Below, piece after piece: positions 9,211 to 22,185 of a stretch of DNA of 22,185 bases (positions are counted from its first letter, which is position 1; the number at the start of each line of letters is the position of its first letter). The DNA lies in the IMG/VR virus record IMGVR_UViG_3300027608_000020; one strand, 5' to 3'. The translations under genes were made by a program, and so were the position numbers. Below the pieces are notes generated by a model. The model searched no databases. It was not told the DNA's origin and saw only the letters and a list, made by a program, of their open reading frames with translations. Source of the DNA: a virus. Taxonomy: Duplodnaviria; Heunggongvirae; Uroviricota; Caudoviricetes.

Positions 9211-9663
9211 ATGGATTTAAAAATGGAAGATTTACGTAAGGCTGCTAAGATAGGTTTCGCAAGCGAATTTAGTTTTTATCTAAAGGCGCATAACTACCAT
9301 TGGAATGTTGTGGGCAGTGACTTTTTAGAATATCATCAACTGTTTGGTGCTGTATACGAAGAAGTGTATGCAAGCATCGATATCTTTGCTGAAAAAATTC
9401 GTAGCTTAGGCACCTTTGTTCCCGGAAGTCTAAGCGCATTTAGTATGCTTAGTACAGTTCCAGATGAAAATAGTCTTCCACCTAAAGAAGCAATGGTTGC
9501 AGAATTATTGCAAGATAACGAACGCATGATAGAAGTTTTAAAATTAGTTTATGATCTAGCAGAAAAATACGGTGAACACGGATTTAGTAATTTCTTAGCA
9601 GAACGTATGGATGCACATCGTAAACACGGCTGGATGTTAAGTGCTAGCCTACAAGGACAATAA
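9211..9663 (+). CDS. dps: Dps family ferritin-like (DNA protection during starvation) protein
   Basis: LKAHNYHWNVVG...HQLF...YEE, DIFAEKIRSLG and HRKHGWML are Dps signatures. Alternative start ATG 9223 (MEDLRK). Confidence 0.93.
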   Translation: MDLKMEDLRKAAKIGFASEFSFYLKAHNYHWNVVGSDFLEYHQLFGAVYEEVYASIDIFAEKIRSLGTFVPGSLSAFSMLSTVPDENSLPPKEAMVAELLQDNERMIEVLKLVYDLAEKYGEHGFSNFLAERMDAHRKHGWMLSASLQGQ

Positions 9664-12483: not shown

Positions 12484-15153
12484 ATGAGTTATGTAGATGC
12501 CATATGGGATCGCGACAATGACATTATCAAAGTTGTAGAGCGTGATCCAAAGAAGGGAAGGATATTTCAAGAATTTCCAGCCCGTTATGTATTTTATTAT
12601 CCTGATCAAAAGGGTAAGTACAGATCAATTTACGGCGAAAGCCTGTCCAAAGTGGTATGCAAAAGCCACAAAGAATTTCAAAAAGAACAACGTATCCACA
12701 ACAATCAACGATTGTTCGAAAGCGATATTAATCAAGTTTTTAGATCACTAGAAGAAAACTATCTAGGTAAAGATGCCCCAAAACTCAACGTAGCGTTTTG
12801 GGACATCGAGGTGGACTTTGATCCAGAACGAGGCTATGCAAGTCCAGATGATGCGTTCATGCCAATCACTGCTATCGCTGTTCACCTACAATGGTTAGAC
12901 ACATTAATATGCCTTGCTATTCCTCCCAAAACACTTACCATGGAACAGGCGAAGGAACAGGTTAAAGATTTTCCAAATACAATTCTGTTTGAAACAGAAG
13001 GAGAAATGTTAGATACATTTTTAACATTGATTGAAGATGCTGATGTGTTAAGTGGGTGGAACAGCGAAGGCTTTGATATGCCCTATACTGTAAATCGTAT
13101 TATTAAAGTGTTAAGCAAGGATGATACTCGTAGATTATGTCTATGGGATGCAATGCCTAAAAAGAGAGAGTATGAGAAGTATGGAAAAGCGGCTGTTACT
13201 TATGATCTGGTTGGTCGTGTTCATCTGGACAGTCTCGAGCTGTACCGCAAGTATACATACGAAGAACGCCATACTTACCGACTTGATGCGATTGGAGAAT
13301 TAGAAGTAGGCGAAACTAAGACACAATACGAAGGTACACTGGATCAACTGTACAATAATGACTTTAAGAAGTTTATCGAATATAACAGACAAGATACTGC
13401 ATTATTAAACAAACTAGATAAGAAATTAAGGTTTATTGATCTTGCTAATACACTGGCACATGAATGTACTGTATTGCTACAAACCACAATGGGTGCTGTA
13501 GCAGTAACTGAACAGGCTATTGTAAATGAAGCACATCATAGAGGTTTGATTGTTCCAAGTCGACCAAAGCGTGATGAGGATGCTAGTAATCAGGCCGCAG
13601 GTGCGTATGTTGCCTATCCAAAGAAAGGACTTCACGATTGGATCGGATCAATGGACATCAACAGTCTGTATCCATCTGTAATTCGTGCATTGAACATGGG
13701 GCCGGAAACTATTGTCGGTCAGCTACGCCAAACATACACTCAAGCAGAAATTGATGCTAAGATTGCTAAAGGTAATAGTTTTGCCGCGGCATGGGAAGGT
13801 AAGTTTGGTGCTAATGAATATGAGTTTGTTATGAATAAAGACAAAGCTCACGAAATTCACGTTGACTGGGAAAACGGTGATACTGATGTACTTACTGGAG
13901 CACAAATCTATGAAATGATTTTTGAAAGTAATCAGCCATGGGTACTAAGTGCTAACGGTACTATCTTTACCTATGAAAAAGAAGGTATTATTCCTGGACT
14001 ACTAAAACGCTGGTATGCTGAACGTAAAGAAATGCAGGCCAAACTAAAAGATGCAATTAAAGCGGAGAATAAAATTGAAGAAGAATATTGGGACAAGAGA
14101 CAATTGGTTAAAAAGATTAACCTTAATAGCTTATACGGTGCTATACTTAACGCTGGCTGTAGGTTTTTCGATAATCGTATTGGTCAGTCAACCACGCTTA
14201 CCGGCCGAGGCATTGCCCGCCATATGGCCGCAAAAATAAATGAAGTAGTCACAGGCGAGTATAACCATACTGGCAAGGCTATCATCTACGGTGATACTGA
14301 TTCTGCATATTTCTCGGCATACGCAACCCTTAGGAAAGAAATTGATAAAAAAGAAATTCCTTGGACAAGAGACAGTATTATTCAATTGTATGATACCGTT
14401 GCTGAAGAAGTAAACAGTACATTCCCACAGTTTATGTTAGATGCACATCACTGCCCTAAATCGCGCGGTGAAGTTATTAAGGCAGGACGTGAGATTGTAG
14501 CAGTTAAAGGCTTGTTTATTACCAAGAAGCGTTATGCTGTATTGTATTACGACAAAGAAGGTAAACGACAAGACATAGACGGAAAGCCTGGAAAGATCAA
14601 GGCCATGGGCTTGGATCTTAAGCGTAGCGATACGCCGGAATTTATGCAGAAGTTCTTAGAAGAAATTCTAACTGATGTACTTAACGGTGCCCAGGAGACA
14701 GATATTCTAGAACGCATTAGCGAGTTTCGCACTGAGTTCAAAGCTAGACCCGGTTGGGAGAAAGGTAGTCCAAAACGTGCTAACAATATTACGGACTATC
14801 AAGCTAAGGAAGCCAAGGCAGGTAGAGCAAATATGCCCGGACACGTTCGTGCTAGCATTAATTGGAATACTCTAAAACGCATGAACGGAGACAAATACTC
14901 AATGGGTATTGTTGATGGCATGAAAGTTATTGTATGTAAGGTTAAGGATAATCCTTTAGGCTATACATCAATTGCTTATCCAGTTGATGAATTACGGTTA
15001 CCTAAGTGGTTTCAGGATTTACCATTTGATCATGCAGAAATGGAAGCCACTATTATTAATAACAAACTCGAAAATCTTATTGGGGTTCTAGAGTGGGACT
15101 TGGGGTCCACTACACAAACTAACACGTTTGGTTCGCTATTCACATTTGAATAA
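12484..15153 (+). CDS. polB: Family B DNA polymerase with 3'-5' exonuclease (T4 gp43-like)
   Basis: Exo I WDIEVD, Exo II GWNSEGFDMPY, Exo III YNRQD; polymerase motifs DINSLYPS, KKINLNSLYG, YGDTDS, KKRY, KAMGLD. No intein-sized insertion. Confidence 0.97.
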   Translation: MSYVDAIWDRDNDIIKVVERDPKKGRIFQEFPARYVFYYPDQKGKYRSIYGESLSKVVCKSHKEFQKEQRIHNNQRLFESDINQVFRSLEENYLGKDAPKLNVAFWDIEVDFDPERGYASPDDAFMPITAIAVHLQWLDTLICLAIPPKTLTMEQAKEQVKDFPNTILFETEGEMLDTFLTLIEDADVLSGWNSEGFDMPYTVNRIIKVLSKDDTRRLCLWDAMPKKREYEKYGKAAVTYDLVGRVHLDSLELYRKYTYEERHTYRLDAIGELEVGETKTQYEGTLDQLYNNDFKKFIEYNRQDTALLNKLDKKLRFIDLANTLAHECTVLLQTTMGAVAVTEQAIVNEAHHRGLIVPSRPKRDEDASNQAAGAYVAYPKKGLHDWIGSMDINSLYPSVIRALNMGPETIVGQLRQTYTQAEIDAKIAKGNSFAAAWEGKFGANEYEFVMNKDKAHEIHVDWENGDTDVLTGAQIYEMIFESNQPWVLSANGTIFTYEKEGIIPGLLKRWYAERKEMQAKLKDAIKAENKIEEEYWDKRQLVKKINLNSLYGAILNAGCRFFDNRIGQSTTLTGRGIARHMAAKINEVVTGEYNHTGKAIIYGDTDSAYFSAYATLRKEIDKKEIPWTRDSIIQLYDTVAEEVNSTFPQFMLDAHHCPKSRGEVIKAGREIVAVKGLFITKKRYAVLYYDKEGKRQDIDGKPGKIKAMGLDLKRSDTPEFMQKFLEEILTDVLNGAQETDILERISEFRTEFKARPGWEKGSPKRANNITDYQAKEAKAGRANMPGHVRASINWNTLKRMNGDKYSMGIVDGMKVIVCKVKDNPLGYTSIAYPVDELRLPKWFQDLPFDHAEMEATIINNKLENLIGVLEWDLGSTTQTNTFGSLFTFE

Positions 15154-15160
15154 AATATAT

Positions 15161-15189
15161 TTGACATTGTTCAAAATTCTAAATAAACT
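15161..15189 (+). promoter_or_regulatory. Sigma70-type promoter TTGACA-N17-TAAACT
   Basis: -35 at 15161-15166, -10 at 15184-15189; RBS AAGGA before ATG 15208; TAAATA embedded at 15180-15185. Confidence 0.7.
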
Positions 15190-15207: not shown

Positions 15208-15942
15208 ATGAAAGACATTCTTCAAGACATCGTAGGACATACACATAACCTGGGGTTCCTCAACGTTGTAAAAATTACAGGTGACGATAAGAAAACACTT
15301 ATTGATTCTATGGCAGATGACCGTTCGGTTATTATGACTGCCGAAACAGCAGACCCGCATCCAGATATGATTGGTGTGTTTGGCATGCCGCAATTGAATA
15401 AACTAAAGTTCTTGTTAGATTGCCCAGAATATAAAGAAAACGCATCTATTGCAACTATCACCGCGGATCGAAACGGTGAAACATTGCCAGTAGGTTTGCA
15501 TTTTGAAAATGCAACAAAGGATTTTAAAAACGATTATCGTTTTATGAGTACTGACATTATTAACGAAAAACTTAAGACTATGAAGTTTAAAGGCGTTAAG
15601 TGGGATGTAACTGTTAGCCCAAGTGTTCAATCAATACAGCGGTTTAATTTTCAGGCAAGTGCAAATAGTGAACACACTACATTCCTTGCCAAAACTGAAG
15701 GCGGTAATTTAAAGTTTATCTTTGGTGACCAATCAACACACGGTGGTGAATTTATTTTTGCAACTAACGTAGCCGGTAGCCTAAATAAAGCATGGACATG
15801 GCCAGTTGCTAGCGTATTAAGTATTCTTAAGATTGCTGATGCTAACAATGCAACCGTTGCATTTTCAAATGAAGGTGCTATGCAAGTTATGTTAGACAGC
15901 GGTATTGCCAATTACAAATATATTATTCCAGCTAACGCATGA
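15208..15942 (+). CDS. DNA polymerase sliding clamp (gp45/PCNA-like)
   Basis: 244 aa, directly after PolB; alternating beta/alpha pattern and C-terminal YKYIIPA typical of clamps. Assigned from size, context and pattern rather than one diagnostic motif. Confidence 0.72.
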   Translation: MKDILQDIVGHTHNLGFLNVVKITGDDKKTLIDSMADDRSVIMTAETADPHPDMIGVFGMPQLNKLKFLLDCPEYKENASIATITADRNGETLPVGLHFENATKDFKNDYRFMSTDIINEKLKTMKFKGVKWDVTVSPSVQSIQRFNFQASANSEHTTFLAKTEGGNLKFIFGDQSTHGGEFIFATNVAGSLNKAWTWPVASVLSILKIADANNATVAFSNEGAMQVMLDSGIANYKYIIPANA

Positions 15943-16304
15943 TAAAAAGCCTTACACAACAGGGAATGTTTACACAGGTTAGCAACGGCTCTCCTGCTCC
16001 GACATATTATCAAACTGGACAACCTATGTCCGGTCAGGTAAGATATTGCAATAACGAATTTGAAGTTTACGACGGCTCAATTTGGCATAAGATACAAGGT
16101 TCATATGCAAGTGTAGGATTAACATCAAACGCCGAATCTGCAATAAATTGGGCATTAGGTAAAATGAACGAAGAAAAAGAACTTCAAAAATTAAGTAATG
16201 AAAACCCTGCTGTTAAGATTGCATATGAAAATATGAAACGTGCCGCTAAACAATTAGAAATAACACAAATATTAAGCAAAGAAGAATATGAATCCACCAG
16301 TTAA
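15939..16304 (+). CDS. Hypothetical protein
   Basis: 121 aa, ATGA overlap; beta-rich N-half (FEVYDGSIW), helical C-half. Confidence 0.7.
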   Translation: MIKSLTQQGMFTQVSNGSPAPTYYQTGQPMSGQVRYCNNEFEVYDGSIWHKIQGSYASVGLTSNAESAINWALGKMNEEKELQKLSNENPAVKIAYENMKRAAKQLEITQILSKEEYESTS

Positions 16305-17823
16305 CCTAACCCCATTTCAGAAAGACTACGCTGTCTATTTGCCAGCTATTAGTAGTTTCTATAGCACCTATGTTGCTAAACAGAGATTAGAGAAGTTTAT
16401 TCCAGACGATCGTGTTCCGACGGGATTTGATCGTGGTATTGAAGGAATGAATTTTCTTAATCCCGAACAAGGTTACTTTACTTACAAATATGGATTGTAT
16501 TCCGCAGGTCATGCACAGTTAGACCTAAACAAATCATTGACGCAAGAGTCAATGATTCAACAACGAGATCGTGGCAACACAATGATCTTAGGTGACTCTG
16601 GTGGATATCAAATTGGTAAAGGTGTTCTTAAGTTTGACTGGCTAGATTTTGAGGGCAAGGCCGCAAACAAGACTCGTCAAAGTATTTTAGAATGGTTAGA
16701 ACTTACTGCTGACTGGTCCATGATGCTGGACGTTCCTACTTGGGCATGTGATCACATTCATAGTCCAAAGACTGGATTAAAAACATTTGATGATTGTTTA
16801 GATAAAACAAAATTCAATAATAAGTATTTCTTAGATAATCGATTAGGTCAAACTAAATGGCTTAACGTGCTACAAGGCGGCGACTGGGATACCGCAGAAG
16901 CATGGTATCAAGGTGTAAAAGAATTTAGCGATCCCACAGGTCCGTATGCCGGTCGTGAAGCCGAAGGGTGGGCCTTTGGTGGTGCTAATATGTGTAAGAT
17001 GGATATTACTCTCAAGCGTTTAATGACACTTAGAGAAGATGGTTTGCTCGAAGGCAAAAACTGGATCCACTTTTTGGGTACAGCACAGTTAGATTGGTCA
17101 TGCTTTTTAACATCAATTCAACGTCAAATAAGGAAACACATAAATGAAGAAATTACCATCTCTTTTGATTGCGCCTCACCGTTCATTGCAACAGCCCACG
17201 GACTTGTCTACACCAATGCAGTCCACACACCAAAAAGGTGGAGCGTTATTATGGACAAAGCCTTTGACAACAAAGCTCTTGCAGGAAGCGATATTCCGTT
17301 CCCCTTCGAATCAGAGATCGGTCGCAGATTAACTGTAGGCGACATTTGTCATTACGCACCCGGAATGTTAAATAAGATTAAGAAAGAAGGAAAAACTAGT
17401 TGGGATAGTTTTGCCTATGCTCTAATGATGGGACATAATGTATATTGTCATATTGTTGCCGTACAACGTGCTCAACAGTTAATGGACATTGAATGTGCTA
17501 AACATAAGCCAGATTGGCGCATGTGGAGTTTAGAAGGCAAGAAAGAAATCGAATTAAGCGATTGGGTTCCACGAAAGATTCTTTATTTTGATAGATTTGT
17601 AGAAGAGTTGTTTAACACTAAAACAAAAGCCGAAGCATTTGAGATGATTGAACAAGCAGTTCCATTCTTAAAGAGTTTAGAAGGTTCTCGACTACAAGGT
17701 GGTCCTAAACAAAACACGTTTAACAATTTGTTTGAAGTAGAAGTAACTAAATCAGACGAAGTTGATCTCGAAGATGTTGAAGACGAAAAAATGATTAAAT
17801 TAATGAGCGACTTAGGAGTCTAA
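16288..17823 (+). CDS. dpdA: tRNA-guanine-transglycosylase-like protein, probably DpdA-type (7-deazaguanine insertion into DNA)
   Basis: TGT motifs GDSGGYQ (D at 16594), MMLDVP (D 16729), VLQGG, WAFGG, IHFLG, SFDC (D 17167); no CxCxxC zinc cluster; clustered with QueD-like and folE genes next to the polymerase. Confidence 0.78.
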   Translation: MNPPVNLTPFQKDYAVYLPAISSFYSTYVAKQRLEKFIPDDRVPTGFDRGIEGMNFLNPEQGYFTYKYGLYSAGHAQLDLNKSLTQESMIQQRDRGNTMILGDSGGYQIGKGVLKFDWLDFEGKAANKTRQSILEWLELTADWSMMLDVPTWACDHIHSPKTGLKTFDDCLDKTKFNNKYFLDNRLGQTKWLNVLQGGDWDTAEAWYQGVKEFSDPTGPYAGREAEGWAFGGANMCKMDITLKRLMTLREDGLLEGKNWIHFLGTAQLDWSCFLTSIQRQIRKHINEEITISFDCASPFIATAHGLVYTNAVHTPKRWSVIMDKAFDNKALAGSDIPFPFESEIGRRLTVGDICHYAPGMLNKIKKEGKTSWDSFAYALMMGHNVYCHIVAVQRAQQLMDIECAKHKPDWRMWSLEGKKEIELSDWVPRKILYFDRFVEELFNTKTKAEAFEMIEQAVPFLKSLEGSRLQGGPKQNTFNNLFEVEVTKSDEVDLEDVEDEKMIKLMSDLGV

Positions 17824-17829
17824 AAAAAC

Positions 17830-18354
17830 ATGACACAATTATATAGAATTACACCTGTTAATACAGGATCAATTAAAATGGTACTAAGTATCATCGAACA
17901 AAGCACAAGCAACATGATGGCTGGGGAAGATAGAGGCATGTCAATTATTACAGTATACAATACTGGATGTGCGTTCCGAAGCATGGACAAACCGGTATAC
18001 GCATCAGAGATTGATTCTTATATTGAATGTAATGCCGAACTTGGGGCACCCGAACTAACAGATCCTCGACCAGAAGAAGAATTTGAATTTAATGAATTTA
18101 TTATTAGCAGTGACGGTAATACTCATATTGCTGATGTATTTCAAGACATGTGGACTAACGGCACATCCAAAGAGGGGTACGAAGGCTTAACCAAAATGGA
18201 TTTGTTTACGTCCGATGCGTTTAGATCCGGTAGATGGAGTACTGCTAGTACAAAAATACGTATTTTGGGCCCCGTAACTATTGACATAGTGACAGGAACC
18301 ACGTATACTAATGTTATCGAAACTAACATACAGCCATTAACAGATGAAACGTGA
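17830..18354 (+). CDS. Hypothetical acidic protein
   Basis: 174-aa ORF packed between flanking genes; no recognised motif. Confidence 0.65.
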   Translation: MTQLYRITPVNTGSIKMVLSIIEQSTSNMMAGEDRGMSIITVYNTGCAFRSMDKPVYASEIDSYIECNAELGAPELTDPRPEEEFEFNEFIISSDGNTHIADVFQDMWTNGTSKEGYEGLTKMDLFTSDAFRSGRWSTASTKIRILGPVTIDIVTGTTYTNVIETNIQPLTDET

Positions 18355-18856
18355 TTACACAACAGGCGAAGCAAGCGATGTTCAGTTCTTTACAGGCGTA
18401 GAGGTTGAACATACACCGGCATTTGGAAAGATGACATTGTTTGTAACAGGCATACATCCAGTAGAAGAAATTGCTCTAAACTTAAATGGAGCAGAGCATA
18501 TTTTCTTTGGTGCAAATCATAGCTTTAATCCACGGACTTCGGAAGAATGGAAACAGTGGGAAGATATGATTTCATATTTCTTAGATAAAGATTATCTGTG
18601 TTCCCTAGATATTCCGTTGAGTGCTGTAGAAGAGTTTAATGACGGTGGATTGAATGATTACGATAACTTCATTCCGCAAATAAGAGTTCCAGTTCCATAT
18701 ATTAAATTATGGAACTATAACACGATGCTTAAGATCGATGATAAAGATTTTAAAGCAACGAACCCGGGCGTGTGGTGTCATAGCCTACACGATTTAAAAG
18801 ACCGTAGTAAGTTTACTCCATGGGATGCTTACTCTAACGATACAATCTTAAAATGA
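18344..18856 (+). CDS. Hypothetical protein within the deazaguanine cluster
   Basis: 170 aa; enzyme-like motifs EVEHTP, HIFFGANHSF, WCHSLH; function not recognised. Confidence 0.75.
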   Translation: MKRDYTTGEASDVQFFTGVEVEHTPAFGKMTLFVTGIHPVEEIALNLNGAEHIFFGANHSFNPRTSEEWKQWEDMISYFLDKDYLCSLDIPLSAVEEFNDGGLNDYDNFIPQIRVPVPYIKLWNYNTMLKIDDKDFKATNPGVWCHSLHDLKDRSKFTPWDAYSNDTILK

Positions 18857-19062
18857 AAGAAGTTATTATCAAAGACGATGCCGGGTTTCGGCTTGTTCTT
18901 AAAGCATGGAAATGTTCCGCACCTCGAGATTTAAATGCTCTTGAATTTACTCAACAAGCAAAAGATTTAAATGGTGACGTTACACTATCTTCAACATATC
19001 AATTTTTTATGACAGACGCCGAACTAGATATCCTTGCAGAAGGAATTAAAAATGTCATCTGA
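18853..19062 (+). CDS. Hypothetical protein
   Basis: 69 aa, ATGA overlap upstream, overlaps the start of the next gene. Confidence 0.6.
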   Translation: MKEVIIKDDAGFRLVLKAWKCSAPRDLNALEFTQQAKDLNGDVTLSSTYQFFMTDAELDILAEGIKNVI

Positions 19063-19453
19063 TCTATCAATGATTTGGGTAACCTTCCGTAAAGAAGGTA
19101 TTCACATGTACCCTGCCGCGGCAACTGATCCTAAGTTGGCTACAGGTGATGAATATGATGTTAGTTTCCTCGGAACTCCACATCGTCATATTTTCCATTT
19201 TAAAGTTTATATCCAGGTCTATCAAGATGACCGTGACATTGAGTTTATCCAGTTTAAGCGTTGGCTTGAAAAGTGCTACAGTGATGGTACATTAGAGCTC
19301 AACCATTGTTCCTGTGAGATGATTGCTCGTGATCTTAACGACATCATCAAAGCAAGATACCCTGGTCGTAAGACTATCATCGATGTAAGTGAAGACGGTG
19401 AGAATGGCGCCGCACTTACTTTTATTAATCACATTTCTACAATGGAATCTTAA
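19052..19453 (+). CDS. QueD-like T-fold protein (6-pyruvoyl-tetrahydropterin synthase family), LxxxHRHxF (DpdL-type) variant
   Basis: RBS AAGGA before ATG 19052; EGIH, LGTPHRHIFH (19169-19198), SCEMIA, VSEDGENGA. Confidence 0.78.
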   Translation: MSSDLSMIWVTFRKEGIHMYPAAATDPKLATGDEYDVSFLGTPHRHIFHFKVYIQVYQDDRDIEFIQFKRWLEKCYSDGTLELNHCSCEMIARDLNDIIKARYPGRKTIIDVSEDGENGAALTFINHISTMES

Positions 19454-19454
19454 A

Positions 19455-19715
19455 ATGGCAAATATCCCTGCCTACATCCAAAAAACTCTTAAAATGAAAC
19501 CAGAGGTTGAAAAAGTATTCGATGACCTCGATAAATGGCTCGACTATTGTCGTTTCAATTTAATTAACTTTAATCCTGCCGATATGTATCGTTCACGAGA
19601 GTGGCGAGACTCTGCTAGAGGTACCGGCGAGCACCGTGAGCGTAAACCGTACTTGGGCAATAAGCCACGTTGGGACAACACCGGTAGACGCAATGAGCAG
19701 AATTTTTCTCGTTGA
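19455..19715 (+). CDS. Hypothetical protein with Arg-rich C-terminus
   Basis: ATG 19455 immediately after the upstream TAA (track start 19389 overlaps the QueD-like gene); FDDLDKWLDYCRF motif. Confidence 0.7.
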   Translation: MANIPAYIQKTLKMKPEVEKVFDDLDKWLDYCRFNLINFNPADMYRSREWRDSARGTGEHRERKPYLGNKPRWDNTGRRNEQNFSR

Positions 19716-20787
19716 TTTAGAATCAGTAGAGACACGGTACACGGGGCAATGGAAGTCCCATGTACCTTCCTTACTTAAAAAGGCAGGACACAATGTCAAC
19801 ATTATATCAGGTCCTACGGACATTCCTAGTGCTACCACTCCTGGTGCATTTCTCAACTTTGGTGGAACTAATATATACAAAGCTAGTCAAGTGGAGCAGA
19901 TGGGCCGTTTATTTTGTAGCGGATCCGTTAATTCCGGCGATCATTTTGTGTTTACTGATGCTTGGCATCCAGGTATCATTAATCTAAAGTACATGAGTGA
20001 GCTATTAGGCATTCCTATCACAATTCACGGCTTGTGGCATGCTGGTAGTTATGATCCTCAAGACTTCCTAGGTCGACTAGTTGGCAATAAGCCTTGGGTA
20101 CGTAATGCAGAGAAATCATTCTTTTCAGCATTTGACCACAACTATTTTGCCACAGAGTTTCATGTTAAAATGATGTTTGATAATCTTTTACATGATTATC
20201 CAGTAGAAAATCCTTGGTATGCAGAAGATTGGTCAGAGCGTTACGACAGCGGTAAGATTGTACGCACAGGCTGGCCCATGGAGTATATGGATGCAACCCT
20301 TACTCCATACAAAGGCATGCCCAAGCGTGATCTTATCTTGTTCCCGCATCGTATCGCTCCAGAGAAACAGGTTGAAATCTTCCGCGACTTAAAAGAACAT
20401 TTGCCACAATATGAATTTATTGTTTGTCAGGATCAACAATTAACAAAGAATGAATATCACAATTTGCTAGGTGAAGCTAAGATGGTATTCAGTGCCAATC
20501 TACAAGAAACACTTGGCATCAGTTGCTACGAAGGTGCCCTCGTTGATGCAATTCCCTTAGTTCCAGATCGGTTAAGTTATACAGAAATGTATTATGATAC
20601 GTTCAAATATCCAAGTGAATGGACTGAAAGTTTTGAAACATACAAAGTTTATCGACAAGATTTGTGTCGTCTAATTATAGAACACATGGCCAATTACAAG
20701 ACTAGAATTCCACAAATACGCAAACAGGCCGACGATTTGTCTAAATATTTCTTTAGCGCAGATCGTCTATTGGAGAATATTAAATGA
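19693..20787 (+). CDS. GT-B fold glycosyltransferase (GT4-like, retaining)
   Basis: ATG 19693 preferred to GTG 19636; FTDAWHPG, HAGSYD, FPHRIAPEKQ, and EX7E motif ETLGISCYE (20506-20532). Confidence 0.82.
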   Translation: MSRIFLVDLESVETRYTGQWKSHVPSLLKKAGHNVNIISGPTDIPSATTPGAFLNFGGTNIYKASQVEQMGRLFCSGSVNSGDHFVFTDAWHPGIINLKYMSELLGIPITIHGLWHAGSYDPQDFLGRLVGNKPWVRNAEKSFFSAFDHNYFATEFHVKMMFDNLLHDYPVENPWYAEDWSERYDSGKIVRTGWPMEYMDATLTPYKGMPKRDLILFPHRIAPEKQVEIFRDLKEHLPQYEFIVCQDQQLTKNEYHNLLGEAKMVFSANLQETLGISCYEGALVDAIPLVPDRLSYTEMYYDTFKYPSEWTESFETYKVYRQDLCRLIIEHMANYKTRIPQIRKQADDLSKYFFSADRLLENIK

Positions 20788-21590
20788 TTTTTGAAAATGA
20801 GTTTCCTAAAATAGGAATTGTAGGATTAGGATTTGTTGGAAGTGCAATTCGCGACTCAATGAGTGGATTTGGTAATTTAATTTTAGTAGATCCGCCAAAA
20901 GGGTTACCCCACACATATAAAGATCTTACATCATGCGAGGCTATATTTGTATGTGTACCTAGCCCAAGTAGTGATGACGGTAGTTGCGATACGACTATTT
21001 TAGAAGACACCTTAGATAAACTTAAAGACTTTAAAGGAGTGATCATTAGTAAAACTACTGCGCCTCCTAGCGTGTATGAAAACTTATCTCAAAAATATAT
21101 CAATCTAGTACATGCACCAGAGTTTTTAACGGCAGCAAATGCTAGTAAGGATTATGCCAGTGGAACGTTTGCCATTATTGGCGGAAGTACTTCTGCTTAT
21201 ATAAGAGAAGCTGAACGCATTATAAAATGGGGACAAAGTGGTCTTAAAGACATCCGATATGCAACCACCGCTGAAGCAAGCCTGGCCAAATATGCTATCA
21301 ATTGTTTCTTGGCTACAAAAGTAGTATTCATGAACGAGTTGTATGCGTTAGCTACAGCATCAGGAATGGATTACAATCATATTACTAATCTGATTAGATT
21401 AGATAAAAGATTTGGCAAAAGCCATACGCAAGTTCCAGGTCCAGATGGCGCTTTGGGATTTGGCGGGATGTGTTTTCCAAAAGATACAGCCGCATTACTA
21501 AAGTTTGCCGAAACTCAAAACGTTGTTCTAAATGTTATTGATGCAGCCGTTAAGAAAAATACACTACTTAGGTTGACAGAACCTAAATAG
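20784..21590 (+). CDS. ugd: UDP-glucose/GDP-mannose dehydrogenase family protein lacking the C-terminal domain
   Basis: Rossmann IGIVGLGFVG, FVCVPSP, SKTTAPP, PEFL, AKYAINCFLATK (catalytic Lys-like, 21288), GFGGMCFPKD (catalytic Cys-like, 21471); only 268 aa. Confidence 0.88.
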   Translation: MIFENEFPKIGIVGLGFVGSAIRDSMSGFGNLILVDPPKGLPHTYKDLTSCEAIFVCVPSPSSDDGSCDTTILEDTLDKLKDFKGVIISKTTAPPSVYENLSQKYINLVHAPEFLTAANASKDYASGTFAIIGGSTSAYIREAERIIKWGQSGLKDIRYATTAEASLAKYAINCFLATKVVFMNELYALATASGMDYNHITNLIRLDKRFGKSHTQVPGPDGALGFGGMCFPKDTAALLKFAETQNVVLNVIDAAVKKNTLLRLTEPK

Positions 21591-21601
21591 TAATGTAAAC
21601 T
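21573..21601 (+). promoter_or_regulatory. Sigma70-type promoter TTGACA-N17-TAAACT upstream of folE
   Basis: -35 at 21573-21578 (inside the ugd 3' end), -10 at 21596-21601; same hexamers and spacing as 15161-15189. Confidence 0.65.
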
Positions 21602-21640
21602 AAACAAATGTCATCCACGACACAAACTCGGAGAATTTAA

Positions 21641-22185
21641 TTGACAAATAAAGAAACAGGATTAGACGCTATGGCAGGTGATGGCGGCTACAAAGAAGAA
21701 AAATATCTAGGCAATTACCTTCGCTTTAAAATGAAACGCGAAGGCAAACGTTTCTGGGCAGGTGATAATATTAGCGAGTATATTGACAATGAGCATGTTA
21801 AAGAACAGCTAATTGACGAAGCCGCAGAAGCATTTGAAACAGTGCTTGATCGATTACTTATTGATCGTGAGAACGATCCCAACTCAAAAGGCACAGCAAG
21901 GCGACTGGCTAAAATGTACTACAACGAAATTATGGGAGGTCGATATGATCCAGCACCAGACGCAACGGCATTCCCAAATGATAGTGAAGATAGGTACGAA
22001 GGTATGTTGGTTGTTCGCAGTGAGCTACGGTCCATGTGCTCTCATCATCACCAGCCTGTATCTGGGGTTGCCTACATCGGTATCATTGCCGCTAATAAAC
22101 TCATTGGTCTTTCTAAATATACTCGTATCGCACAATGGTGTGCTCGTCGAGGAACACTACAAGAAGAACTCTGCAACGACATTGC
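21641..22185 (+). CDS. folE: GTP cyclohydrolase I (3' truncated by window edge; absent from the supplied ORF track)
   Basis: RBS GGAGA 21630-21634, TTG start 21641, 181 open codons: ...DPNSKGTARRLAKMY...LRSMCSHHHQP (CSHH 22037-22048)...IGLSKYTRIAQWCARRGTLQEEL. Confidence 0.95.
   Translation, partial: MTNKETGLDAMAGDGGYKEEKYLGNYLRFKMKREGKRFWAGDNISEYIDNEHVKEQLIDEAAEAFETVLDRLLIDRENDPNSKGTARRLAKMYYNEIMGGRYDPAPDATAFPNDSEDRYEGMLVVRSELRSMCSHHHQPVSGVAYIGIIAANKLIGLSKYTRIAQWCARRGTLQEELCNDI

Follow-up and report, generated by a model that had tools for sequence, protein, structure and literature searches.

In this work we describe a compact run of genes at the 3' end of a 22,185-nt stretch of DNA from a tailed virus (Caudoviricetes; IMG/VR record IMGVR_UViG_3300027608_000020), the whole of which is referred to here as the window. 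This run very probably constitutes a QueC-less, DpdL-type 7-deazaguanine DNA-modification module, which includes in addition a glycosyltransferase (GT) and a shortened relative of UDP-glucose dehydrogenases. All large open reading frames (ORFs) of the window lie on the + strand, and nine of them follow the genes for a family B DNA polymerase (PolB) and a sliding clamp: a DpdA-like DNA guanine transglycosylase of 511 aa (16288..17823), three small proteins named here by their length, p174 (17830..18354), p170 (18344..18856) and p69 (18853..19062), the predicted 7-carboxy-7-deazaguanine (CDG) decarboxylase DpdL (19070..19453), p86 (19455..19715), a GT4-type retaining GT-B glycosyltransferase of 364 aa (19693..20787), a short two-domain UDP-glucose-dehydrogenase-like enzyme of 268 aa (20784..21590), and FolE, GTP cyclohydrolase I, the 3' end of which lies beyond the window (21641..22183). 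From the start of a further 121-aa protein (p121, 15939..16304) to the window end, genes overlap by 17, 11, 4, 23 and 4 nt or are separated by gaps of at most 6 nt, the sole exception to this tight packing being a 50-nt gap ahead of folE; the stop codon of the GT gene and the start codon of the dehydrogenase gene share the letters ATGA. A sequence-only reading of this DNA had listed these genes, and because the packing and coordinates check out, its list is right in position and order. The arrangement recurs in approximately 200 independent viral contigs and several cultured phage genera, a recurrence that is far beyond chance.

The first of the nine genes had been labelled dpdA-like, a label that is borne out by fold and profile comparison and finds no counterpart among sequence families. 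Searches of Pfam, PHROG and NCBIfam returned nothing for the 511-aa protein of the window, nor for its GT, p174, p170, p69, p86 or p121, and phmmer/hmmsearch comparisons of the 511-aa protein, the GT and p170 with PDB sequences gave nothing significant. From 1.8 billion cluster representatives, 894 relatives of the 511-aa protein were recovered and 65 were aligned; three of these match the transglycosylase family PF01702, weakly (best E 0.0045). In comparison, an AlphaFold2 (AF2) model of the protein (pLDDT 92.1, pTM 0.91) finds a tRNA-guanine transglycosylase (TGT) in every one of the best 50 Foldseek matches in the PDB (E ~1e-6, probability 1.0), and the family profile aligns with E. coli Tgt in hhalign at 88% probability (E 2.9e-6). 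This alignment pairs GDSGGYQ with TDSGGFQ (D103), LDVPT with FDECT, which holds the substrate-binding Asp, and ISFDCASP with DMFDCVMP (D294, the second catalytic Asp). D103, S104 and G106 of the GDSGGFQ motif as well as D294 are invariant in the 65 relatives, so that both catalytic Asp residues are kept throughout. The zinc site of TGT enzymes (CxCxxC...H) has no equivalent, there being no invariant or near-invariant Cys among these relatives, and the alignment with E. coli Tgt ends ahead of the zinc region. Among phage proteins, the window transglycosylase is nearer to a 424-aa protein encoded next to the GT of Acidovorax phage ACP17 (hhalign probability 96.8%) than to the 259-aa DpdA3 of phage phiST, to which its relation is weak (72%). 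On the strength of these comparisons and the structural model, the protein reads as a long, zinc-less DpdA-type enzyme, for which base exchange in DNA is predicted.

The gene at 19070..19453, for which 19052 and 19034 are other possible starts, had been read as QueD-like. Identification as QueD was rejected, as the encoded protein (127-139 aa, depending on the start chosen) carries LGTPHRHIF, which fits the DpdL signature LxxxHRHxF. DpdL is a QueD paralogue in which the QueD motif CxxxHGH is changed to LxxxHRHxF, and it has been proposed as the CDG decarboxylase of phiST (Cui, Hutinet et al., NAR 2023, PMC10516641). This signature is kept in 12 diverse DpdL members, in which H23, H44, H46, an S-C-E triplet and E113 are also invariant. 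By tblastn, the window protein shares 34% identity with phiST CGPG_00067 (DpdL), with 84% of the query covered, and 56% with the ACP17 homologue; in addition, a hidden Markov model of the DpdL family matches CGPG_00067 at 1e-39, and the window protein matches PHROG 17812 at 1.3e-32. Genomic context likewise fits DpdL, with FolE and the DpdA-like enzyme in the window, and with QueE and QueD present and a true QueC absent in related whole records.

The folE label was confirmed at 73.3 bits against PF01227 (GTP_cyclohydroI, 2.1e-20; cut-off 27 bits), the N-terminal two-thirds of the protein lying inside the window. The deazaguanine set to which it belongs is divided: FolE and the DpdA-like enzyme are encoded here, and the window has no gene for QueE, QueD or QueC. 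What lies beyond its 3' end can be seen in locus L003, a relative with 97% identity on a metagenome contig of 376 kb, which encodes a full FolE of 245 aa followed by rubrerythrin, rubredoxin, a Bax1-I protein, small unknown proteins, a MazG-like protein, a QueE-like radical-SAM enzyme, a 141-aa protein and a 5'-3' exonuclease, and whose gene order in this 3' part is that of PA5oct-like phages. The QueE-like gene lies approximately 4 kb 3' in relatives. Furthermore, we checked five related whole records, comprising two near-complete contigs of the window's clade (G001 and G002) and the phages PAC2, ACP17 and Phosso. QueD (PF01242) was found in all five, while QueC was absent from four and represented in the fifth by a partial PP-loop match only. 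The protein so matched, on the 353-kb contig behind locus L040 (L148:991-1923, - strand, 310 aa), was rejected as a true QueC, its match reaching 26 bits over profile positions 4-68 of 210; this protein lies approximately 70 kb from the module, adjoins a fatty-acid desaturase-like gene and is probably another PP-loop ATPase. Taken with the TGT-fold enzyme, DpdL and FolE of the window, the QueE and QueD of close relatives uphold the proposal of a deazaguanine pathway.

The GT gene probably starts at 19693 rather than at 19636. Its description as a GT-B glycosyltransferase was confirmed and can be made more precise, the protein being of GT4 type with a GT-B fold and an EX7E motif. An AF2 model (pLDDT 93.4, pTM 0.90) superposes at VIA-align Z scores of 21-26 on sucrose-phosphate synthase, BshA, MshA, GlgM and PglA over 290-319 aligned residues (26.1 for sucrose-phosphate synthase, 24.3 for BshA and 24.1 for MshA), and a Foldseek search of the PDB agrees. 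The EX7E motif (E272-E280), R220 and K225 are invariant in 52 GT relatives, 26 of which match Pfam Glycos_transf_1 (PF00534; best 7.6e-7). T4 alpha-glucosyltransferase, with which a parallel had been drawn earlier, is not the closest match to the model, and the highest-ranked structures are GT4 enzymes that act on small molecules (BshA, MshA, sucrose-phosphate synthase); neither T4 alpha- nor beta-glucosyltransferase is among the best 50 matches listed by Foldseek PDB or VIA-align, a result with which relatedness is still compatible. Among lower-ranked matches, a cyanophage protein annotated as a DNA alpha-glycosyltransferase stands at rank 32 in BFVD, and the tetrahydrobiopterin glucosyltransferases 5zer and 9v0l stand at ranks 38-42 of the VIA-align search (Z ~20.8-20.9). 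At rank 8 of a Swiss-Prot fold search is Drosophila tRNA-queuosine alpha-mannosyltransferase (QTMAN; E 8e-9, TM score 0.56), although this likeness is that of the general GT4 fold, common to many unrelated GT4 enzymes. A predicted complex of the GT with the short dehydrogenase scored 0.00, which counts neither way. As a separate observation, four related loci contain an extra piece of 88-91 aa that matches the GT N-terminus, a few kb 5' of the full GT (L099:2247-2510, L104:7611-7883, L141:8771-9043 and L146:3095-3361), which could be the remnant of a duplication or of a gene-splitting insertion.

Key to the interpretation of this GT is whether it travels with the deazaguanine genes, independent assortment from dpdA having been named beforehand by the sequence-only reading as the finding that would count against its proposal. 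Locus scans, each taking at most the 80 best loci as ranked by similarity to the query and therefore no unbiased census, gave the opposite result. Among 57 diverse IMG/VR loci found with the GT as seed (31-49% identity to the ACP17 GT), 49 have DpdL beside the GT; the GT lies at a contig edge in seven of the other eight, giving 49 of 50 assessable loci, and stands alone only in L126. FolE, QueE, a DpdA-type gene, PolB and the clamp are usually found in the same 20 kb of these loci. Conversely, a scan seeded with DpdL from a GT-less phage recovered the GT in 72 of 79 loci, or 72 of the 74 that are assessable, five being truncated and two truly without GT. Within the window's own clade, 80 loci have as their core order PolB, clamp, DpdA, p170, DpdL, p86, GT, FolE, p153, QueE and p141. 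The transglycosylase and GT have thousands of metagenome relatives at 80-99% identity, on contigs of up to 377 kb. Among cultured phages, every near-full-length GT match shares its record with DpdL, the carriers being 11 PA5oct-like phages, Phosso, ACP17, Xanthomonas phages X1 and BUDD, and Burkholderia phage BCSR5, and the two genes are adjacent in the PA5oct-likes, Phosso and ACP17. DpdL without GT is found in phiST, RHph_I1_18, Ahp1 and others. Linkage is seen in the cultured, GT-seeded and DpdL-seeded sets alike, and we conclude that the GT belongs with the DpdL-type module and does not lie there by chance.

The enzyme encoded 3' of the GT had been taken for a UDP-sugar dehydrogenase, an assignment that stands for its NAD-binding and central domains and its catalytic residues, and fails for the UDP-binding domain. 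Pfam identifies UDPG_MGDP_dh (PF00984, 4.1e-22) and UDPG_MGDP_dh_N (PF03721, 4.1e-12) in its 268 aa, with no match to the C-terminal UDP-sugar-binding domain (PF03720), and TIGR03026 scores 133 bits against a cut-off of 189.8, over profile positions 71-294 of 413. Aligned with the 444-residue UDP-glucose 6-dehydrogenase 3vtf, the protein covers residues 96-313 and ends where the UDP-binding domain would start. Canonical enzymes of this type (3vtf, 1dli) thus share with it the NAD-binding and central domains and the catalytic Cys, Lys, Asn and Asp, but have the C-terminal UDP-sugar-binding domain that is missing here. GxGxxG, D36, T92, E113, K169, N173, C230 and D234 are invariant in 29 relatives. 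As the enzyme is one of a large family of proteins, mostly from viruses, that have two domains and a length of 230-295 aa, it is a natural short form and not a broken gene.

In contrast with the GT, the short dehydrogenase assorts largely independently. Of 80 loci from the window's clade, 39 have its gene no more than 10 kb from the GT: in 10 it follows the GT directly, in 21 it is placed between PolB and the clamp, and in eight it has another position close by. It is present in four of the 57 GT-seeded and three of the 79 DpdL-seeded diverse loci, and the cultured phages with GT and DpdL all lack it. The short dehydrogenase is accordingly an accessory gene, loosely tied to the module. A counter-example to this loose linkage is provided by Campylobacter phage CP220, where a short dehydrogenase lies one small gene 3' of QueE (L007:6928-8762), in a stretch that has no match to DpdL or the GT. 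All G of CP220 is replaced by deazaguanine (as cited in PMC10516641), and the placement hints at a role of the short dehydrogenase in deazapurine rather than sugar chemistry.

The small proteins of the module differ in their conservation. One of them, p170, is a frequent member, which lies 5' of DpdL in 24 of the 57 diverse loci and in ACP17 (a family member is found at L006:6233-6718) and in which an enzyme-like set of residues, E20, E22, K130 and D132-D133, is conserved; it may supply a missing chemical step of the pathway. The Atlas offers for it a weak lead to YqcI_YcgG, with a score of 0.79 that is below the trust level, and comparison with a Phosso protein annotated as 'glycosylase' and a PAC2 'epimerase domain' protein found both to be unrelated. 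The 86-aa p86 (pI 9.6; 91% identity in L003) lies between DpdL and GT in many loci and has a very basic C-terminal half, and may bind nucleic acid. The very acidic p174 (pI 4.29, net charge -14) is fast-evolving, with 46% identity in L003 where adjacent genes have 81-97%; it has no Atlas match and is missing from almost all related loci, and we speculate that it could be an anti-defence protein, e.g. one that mimics DNA or inhibits anti-deazaguanine glycosylases. The remaining two are p69, which is 94% identical in L003 and sporadic in related loci, and p121, which has 40% identity in L003 against 97% overall.

Upstream of the module, the window encodes a ClpB-like ATPase, a 2,259-aa protein, a ferritin-like protein (9211-9663) and PolB, a single 889-aa ORF (12484..15153; Pfam DNA_pol_B 2.4e-37, DNA_pol_B_exo1 1.2e-18). 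The PCNA-like clamp of 244 aa (15208..15942) has no Pfam match and was identified by 34% identity, over its full length, to proteins annotated as PCNA in PAC2 and sliding clamp in Phosso. The order PolB, clamp, DpdA is kept in most related loci. In PA5oct-like phages (PAC2, L001:2605-7831) the polymerase is annotated as two pieces, split by a Hef-like homing endonuclease gene. Between FolE and QueE, locus L003 encodes a rubrerythrin, a rubredoxin-like mini-protein and a Bax1-I membrane protein (L003:16195-17483), which together with the ferritin-like gene of the window make up an iron/oxidative-stress gene set unusual for a phage. Identical promoter-like sites (TTGACA, 17 nt, TAAACT) were noted at 15161-15189 and 21573-21601, where they precede the clamp gene and folE, at the two places where the region has a sizeable intergenic gap; promoter and terminator scans gave results not above shuffled expectation. 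A megablast comparison of the region with 50,697 phage records yielded zero matches, and thus no close cultured relative. The window phage is an uncultured jumbo phage, a distant relative of the Pseudomonas PA5oct group, and its clade is very abundant in metagenomes and without a cultured member.

Comparison with characterized phages places the module among known deazaguanine systems. In phiST, which has DpdL and DpdA3 and lacks a GT, all G is replaced by deoxy-7-deazaguanine (dDG) (PMC10516641). Both phages combine FolE, QueD and QueE without QueC, as judged for the window phage with the help of its relatives, with the DpdL motif (34% identity), a distant TGT-like enzyme and a position beside a DNA polymerase, and 7-deazaguanine is the expected product in each; phiST differs in having no GT4 gene, p170 or short dehydrogenase, and in the length of its DpdA3 (259 against 511 aa). 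Closer parallels are the PA5oct group (Wroclawvirus), which has PolB, clamp, DpdA-like enzyme (45% identical), GT (41%), DpdL (54%) and QueE in the same order, and ACP17, which has QueD, FolE, a p170-like protein, DpdA, GT, DpdL and QueE. These phages are cultured and their modules lack the short dehydrogenase, whereas the window phage is known from metagenomes only. The DNA of PA5oct is resistant to five restriction enzymes and is attacked by nucleases that sense modified G, from which a modified G has been inferred (PMC12191111), and expression of dpdL and dpdA of ACP17 alone in E. coli produced no dDG, the authors suggesting that further enzymes may be needed (PMC10516641).

Based on these findings, we propose a pathway in which FolE, QueD (encoded elsewhere in the genomes of relatives) and QueE would convert GTP to CDG, the predicted decarboxylase DpdL would convert CDG to 7-deazaguanine, and the long zinc-less DpdA-like enzyme would exchange guanine in DNA for the deazapurine. 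While the folds, motifs, family membership and linkage of these proteins are those reported above, the chemistry of these three steps is taken from literature on related phages. The GT4-type enzyme would then glycosylate the deazapurine, either as free base or as base in DNA, with a sugar taken from a nucleotide-sugar of the host. Finally, in those sub-lineages that possess it, the translationally coupled short dehydrogenase may oxidise C6 of the hexose to give a uronic acid, and might act on the sugar after its transfer or in concert with the GT. We infer that a deazapurine is the acceptor of the GT from its linkage, the modified G of PA5oct, the failed two-gene reconstitution with ACP17 and precedents for the glycosylation of 7-deazapurines. 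These precedents are QTMAN and HuiG, of which the latter N-glycosylates a free 7-deazapurine base at a nitrogen of the ring system, with UDP-GlcNAc, in huimycin biosynthesis (10.64898/2026.04.15.718813); both place sugar on a 7-deazapurine, but their substrates are tRNA queuosine (at a cyclopentenediol hydroxyl) and a secondary-metabolite base, respectively, not DNA. The T4 alpha- and beta-glucosyltransferases offer a looser analogy, since they share the GT-B fold, are encoded beside a base-modification pathway and presumably give protection from host nucleases, whereas their acceptor is a pyrimidine hydroxymethyl and the partner pathway in the window leads to a purine analogue without an obvious hydroxyl. 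To our knowledge, all glycosylated DNA bases described so far are pyrimidines, and our searches of the literature turned up no report of a glycosylated deazaguanine in DNA.

We hold the parts of this proposal with differing confidence. That the module's GT gives rise to a glycosylated deazapurine which would persist in virion DNA is, from the sequence and linkage evidence, a tentative reading to which we assign nearly an even chance. An acidic sugar, as the sequence-only reading had envisaged, is weakly founded because the dehydrogenase has no UDP-binding domain, and a uronic acid-forming role of this enzyme appears doubtful. Uronic and other acidic sugars have already been reported on cytosine in DNA, as 5-hydroxymethylcytosine derivatives (bioRxiv 10.1101/2023.12.21.572611), so that an acidic sugar on DNA is not unprecedented as such. 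The joint proposal, that GT4, DpdL and the enlarged zinc-less DpdA together make what would be the first sugar-bearing purine known from DNA, the sugar of which is then oxidised to a uronic acid in a sub-lineage, is possible, and we advance it with reserve.

Several points weigh against glycosylation. The sugar on the DNA of GT-bearing phages is our inference rather than a chemical observation, and the decarboxylase activity of DpdL is itself a prediction, even for phiST and ACP17 (PMC10516641). Plain 7-deazaguanine has no hydroxyl, and attachment at N2, C7/C8, O6 or the CDG carboxyl would each be unusual. The modelled GT has as its closest structural relatives enzymes that use small molecules, not DNA, and is an acidic protein (pI 5.8), although its pI says little about DNA binding because the DpdA-like enzyme is equally acidic. 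For the dehydrogenase, in addition to the missing UDP-binding domain, there are at least seven clade loci with full flanks in which the gene is absent, and short dehydrogenases are common in phages that have no deazaguanine genes, among them Microbacterium phages and a relative from a cyanophage, where the gene adjoins one for a sugar epimerase. Given the small-molecule substrates of its structural relatives, the GT could glycosylate the free base, for subsequent insertion by the enlarged DpdA, or no sugar may reach the DNA at all.

The latter case leads to the best-surviving alternative, which we nevertheless consider rather unlikely: that virion DNA contains unglycosylated dDG or its 7-carboxy form (dCDG), as in phiST, and that the GT makes a transient intermediate or carrier, or detoxifies or sequesters the deazapurine pool. 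Full replacement by dDG in phiST and Vibrio phage VP1 is consistent with such an end product, the best GT matches are small-molecule enzymes (BshA, MshA, LmbT and tetrahydrobiopterin glucosyltransferase), and the failure of ACP17 DpdL and DpdA to yield dDG fits a missing biosynthetic helper. However, phiST, RHph_I1_18 and Ahp1 possess DpdL and no GT, and because GT-less phiST is fully modified, the GT is not a general requirement for making or inserting 7-deazaguanine; furthermore, the module showed no glycosidase by which a transient sugar could be taken off. A second alternative, which we regard as improbable, has the GT, with or without the short dehydrogenase, acting on a target other than DNA and merely co-transcribed, the target being a pterin derived from the FolE product, the envelope of the host, or a protein of either phage or host. 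The tetrahydrobiopterin glucosyltransferases among the structural matches are in keeping with a pterin acceptor, as is the presence near FolE of DpdL, a protein of PTPS/QueD fold, and the short dehydrogenase adjoins ordinary nucleotide-sugar genes in many phages, e.g. an epimerase in phage C48C1. Against this, the GT keeps near-exclusive company with DpdL, the DpdA-like enzyme and QueE across very divergent phages, with a single assessable locus in 50 (L126) having the GT without deazaguanine genes, and neither QueE nor DpdA has a role in pterin glycoside synthesis. Finally, that the GT glycosylates another modified base, a hydroxymethyl or hydroxy pyrimidine, in parallel to an independent deazaguanine modification would agree with all known phage DNA glycosyltransferases, which use pyrimidine side chains (T4; 5-hydroxymethylcytosine glycans; 5-hydroxycytosine), but is highly improbable, as no ThyA-family hydroxymethylase was found in G001, G002 or ACP17, which makes a T4-style hydroxymethyl-pyrimidine acceptor unlikely, the GT tracks DpdL and no pyrimidine-modifying gene, and the PA5oct restriction data point to G.

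If the proposal of a glycosylated deazapurine is true, a sugar on this base would represent a new class of DNA hypermodification, and because plain 7-deazaguanine offers no hydroxyl, new enzyme chemistry would be needed to attach it. A glycosylated deazaguanine could account for the modified G of PA5oct, a candidate phage for therapy, and also for the failed reconstitution of dDG by ACP17 DpdL and DpdA; the question is directly testable in phages that are already in culture. The modification would also have a bearing on restriction enzymes, CRISPR tools, the recently described END nucleases and anti-deazaguanine DNA glycosylases and, because the module is very common, would shape the conflict between phages and their hosts in many environments.

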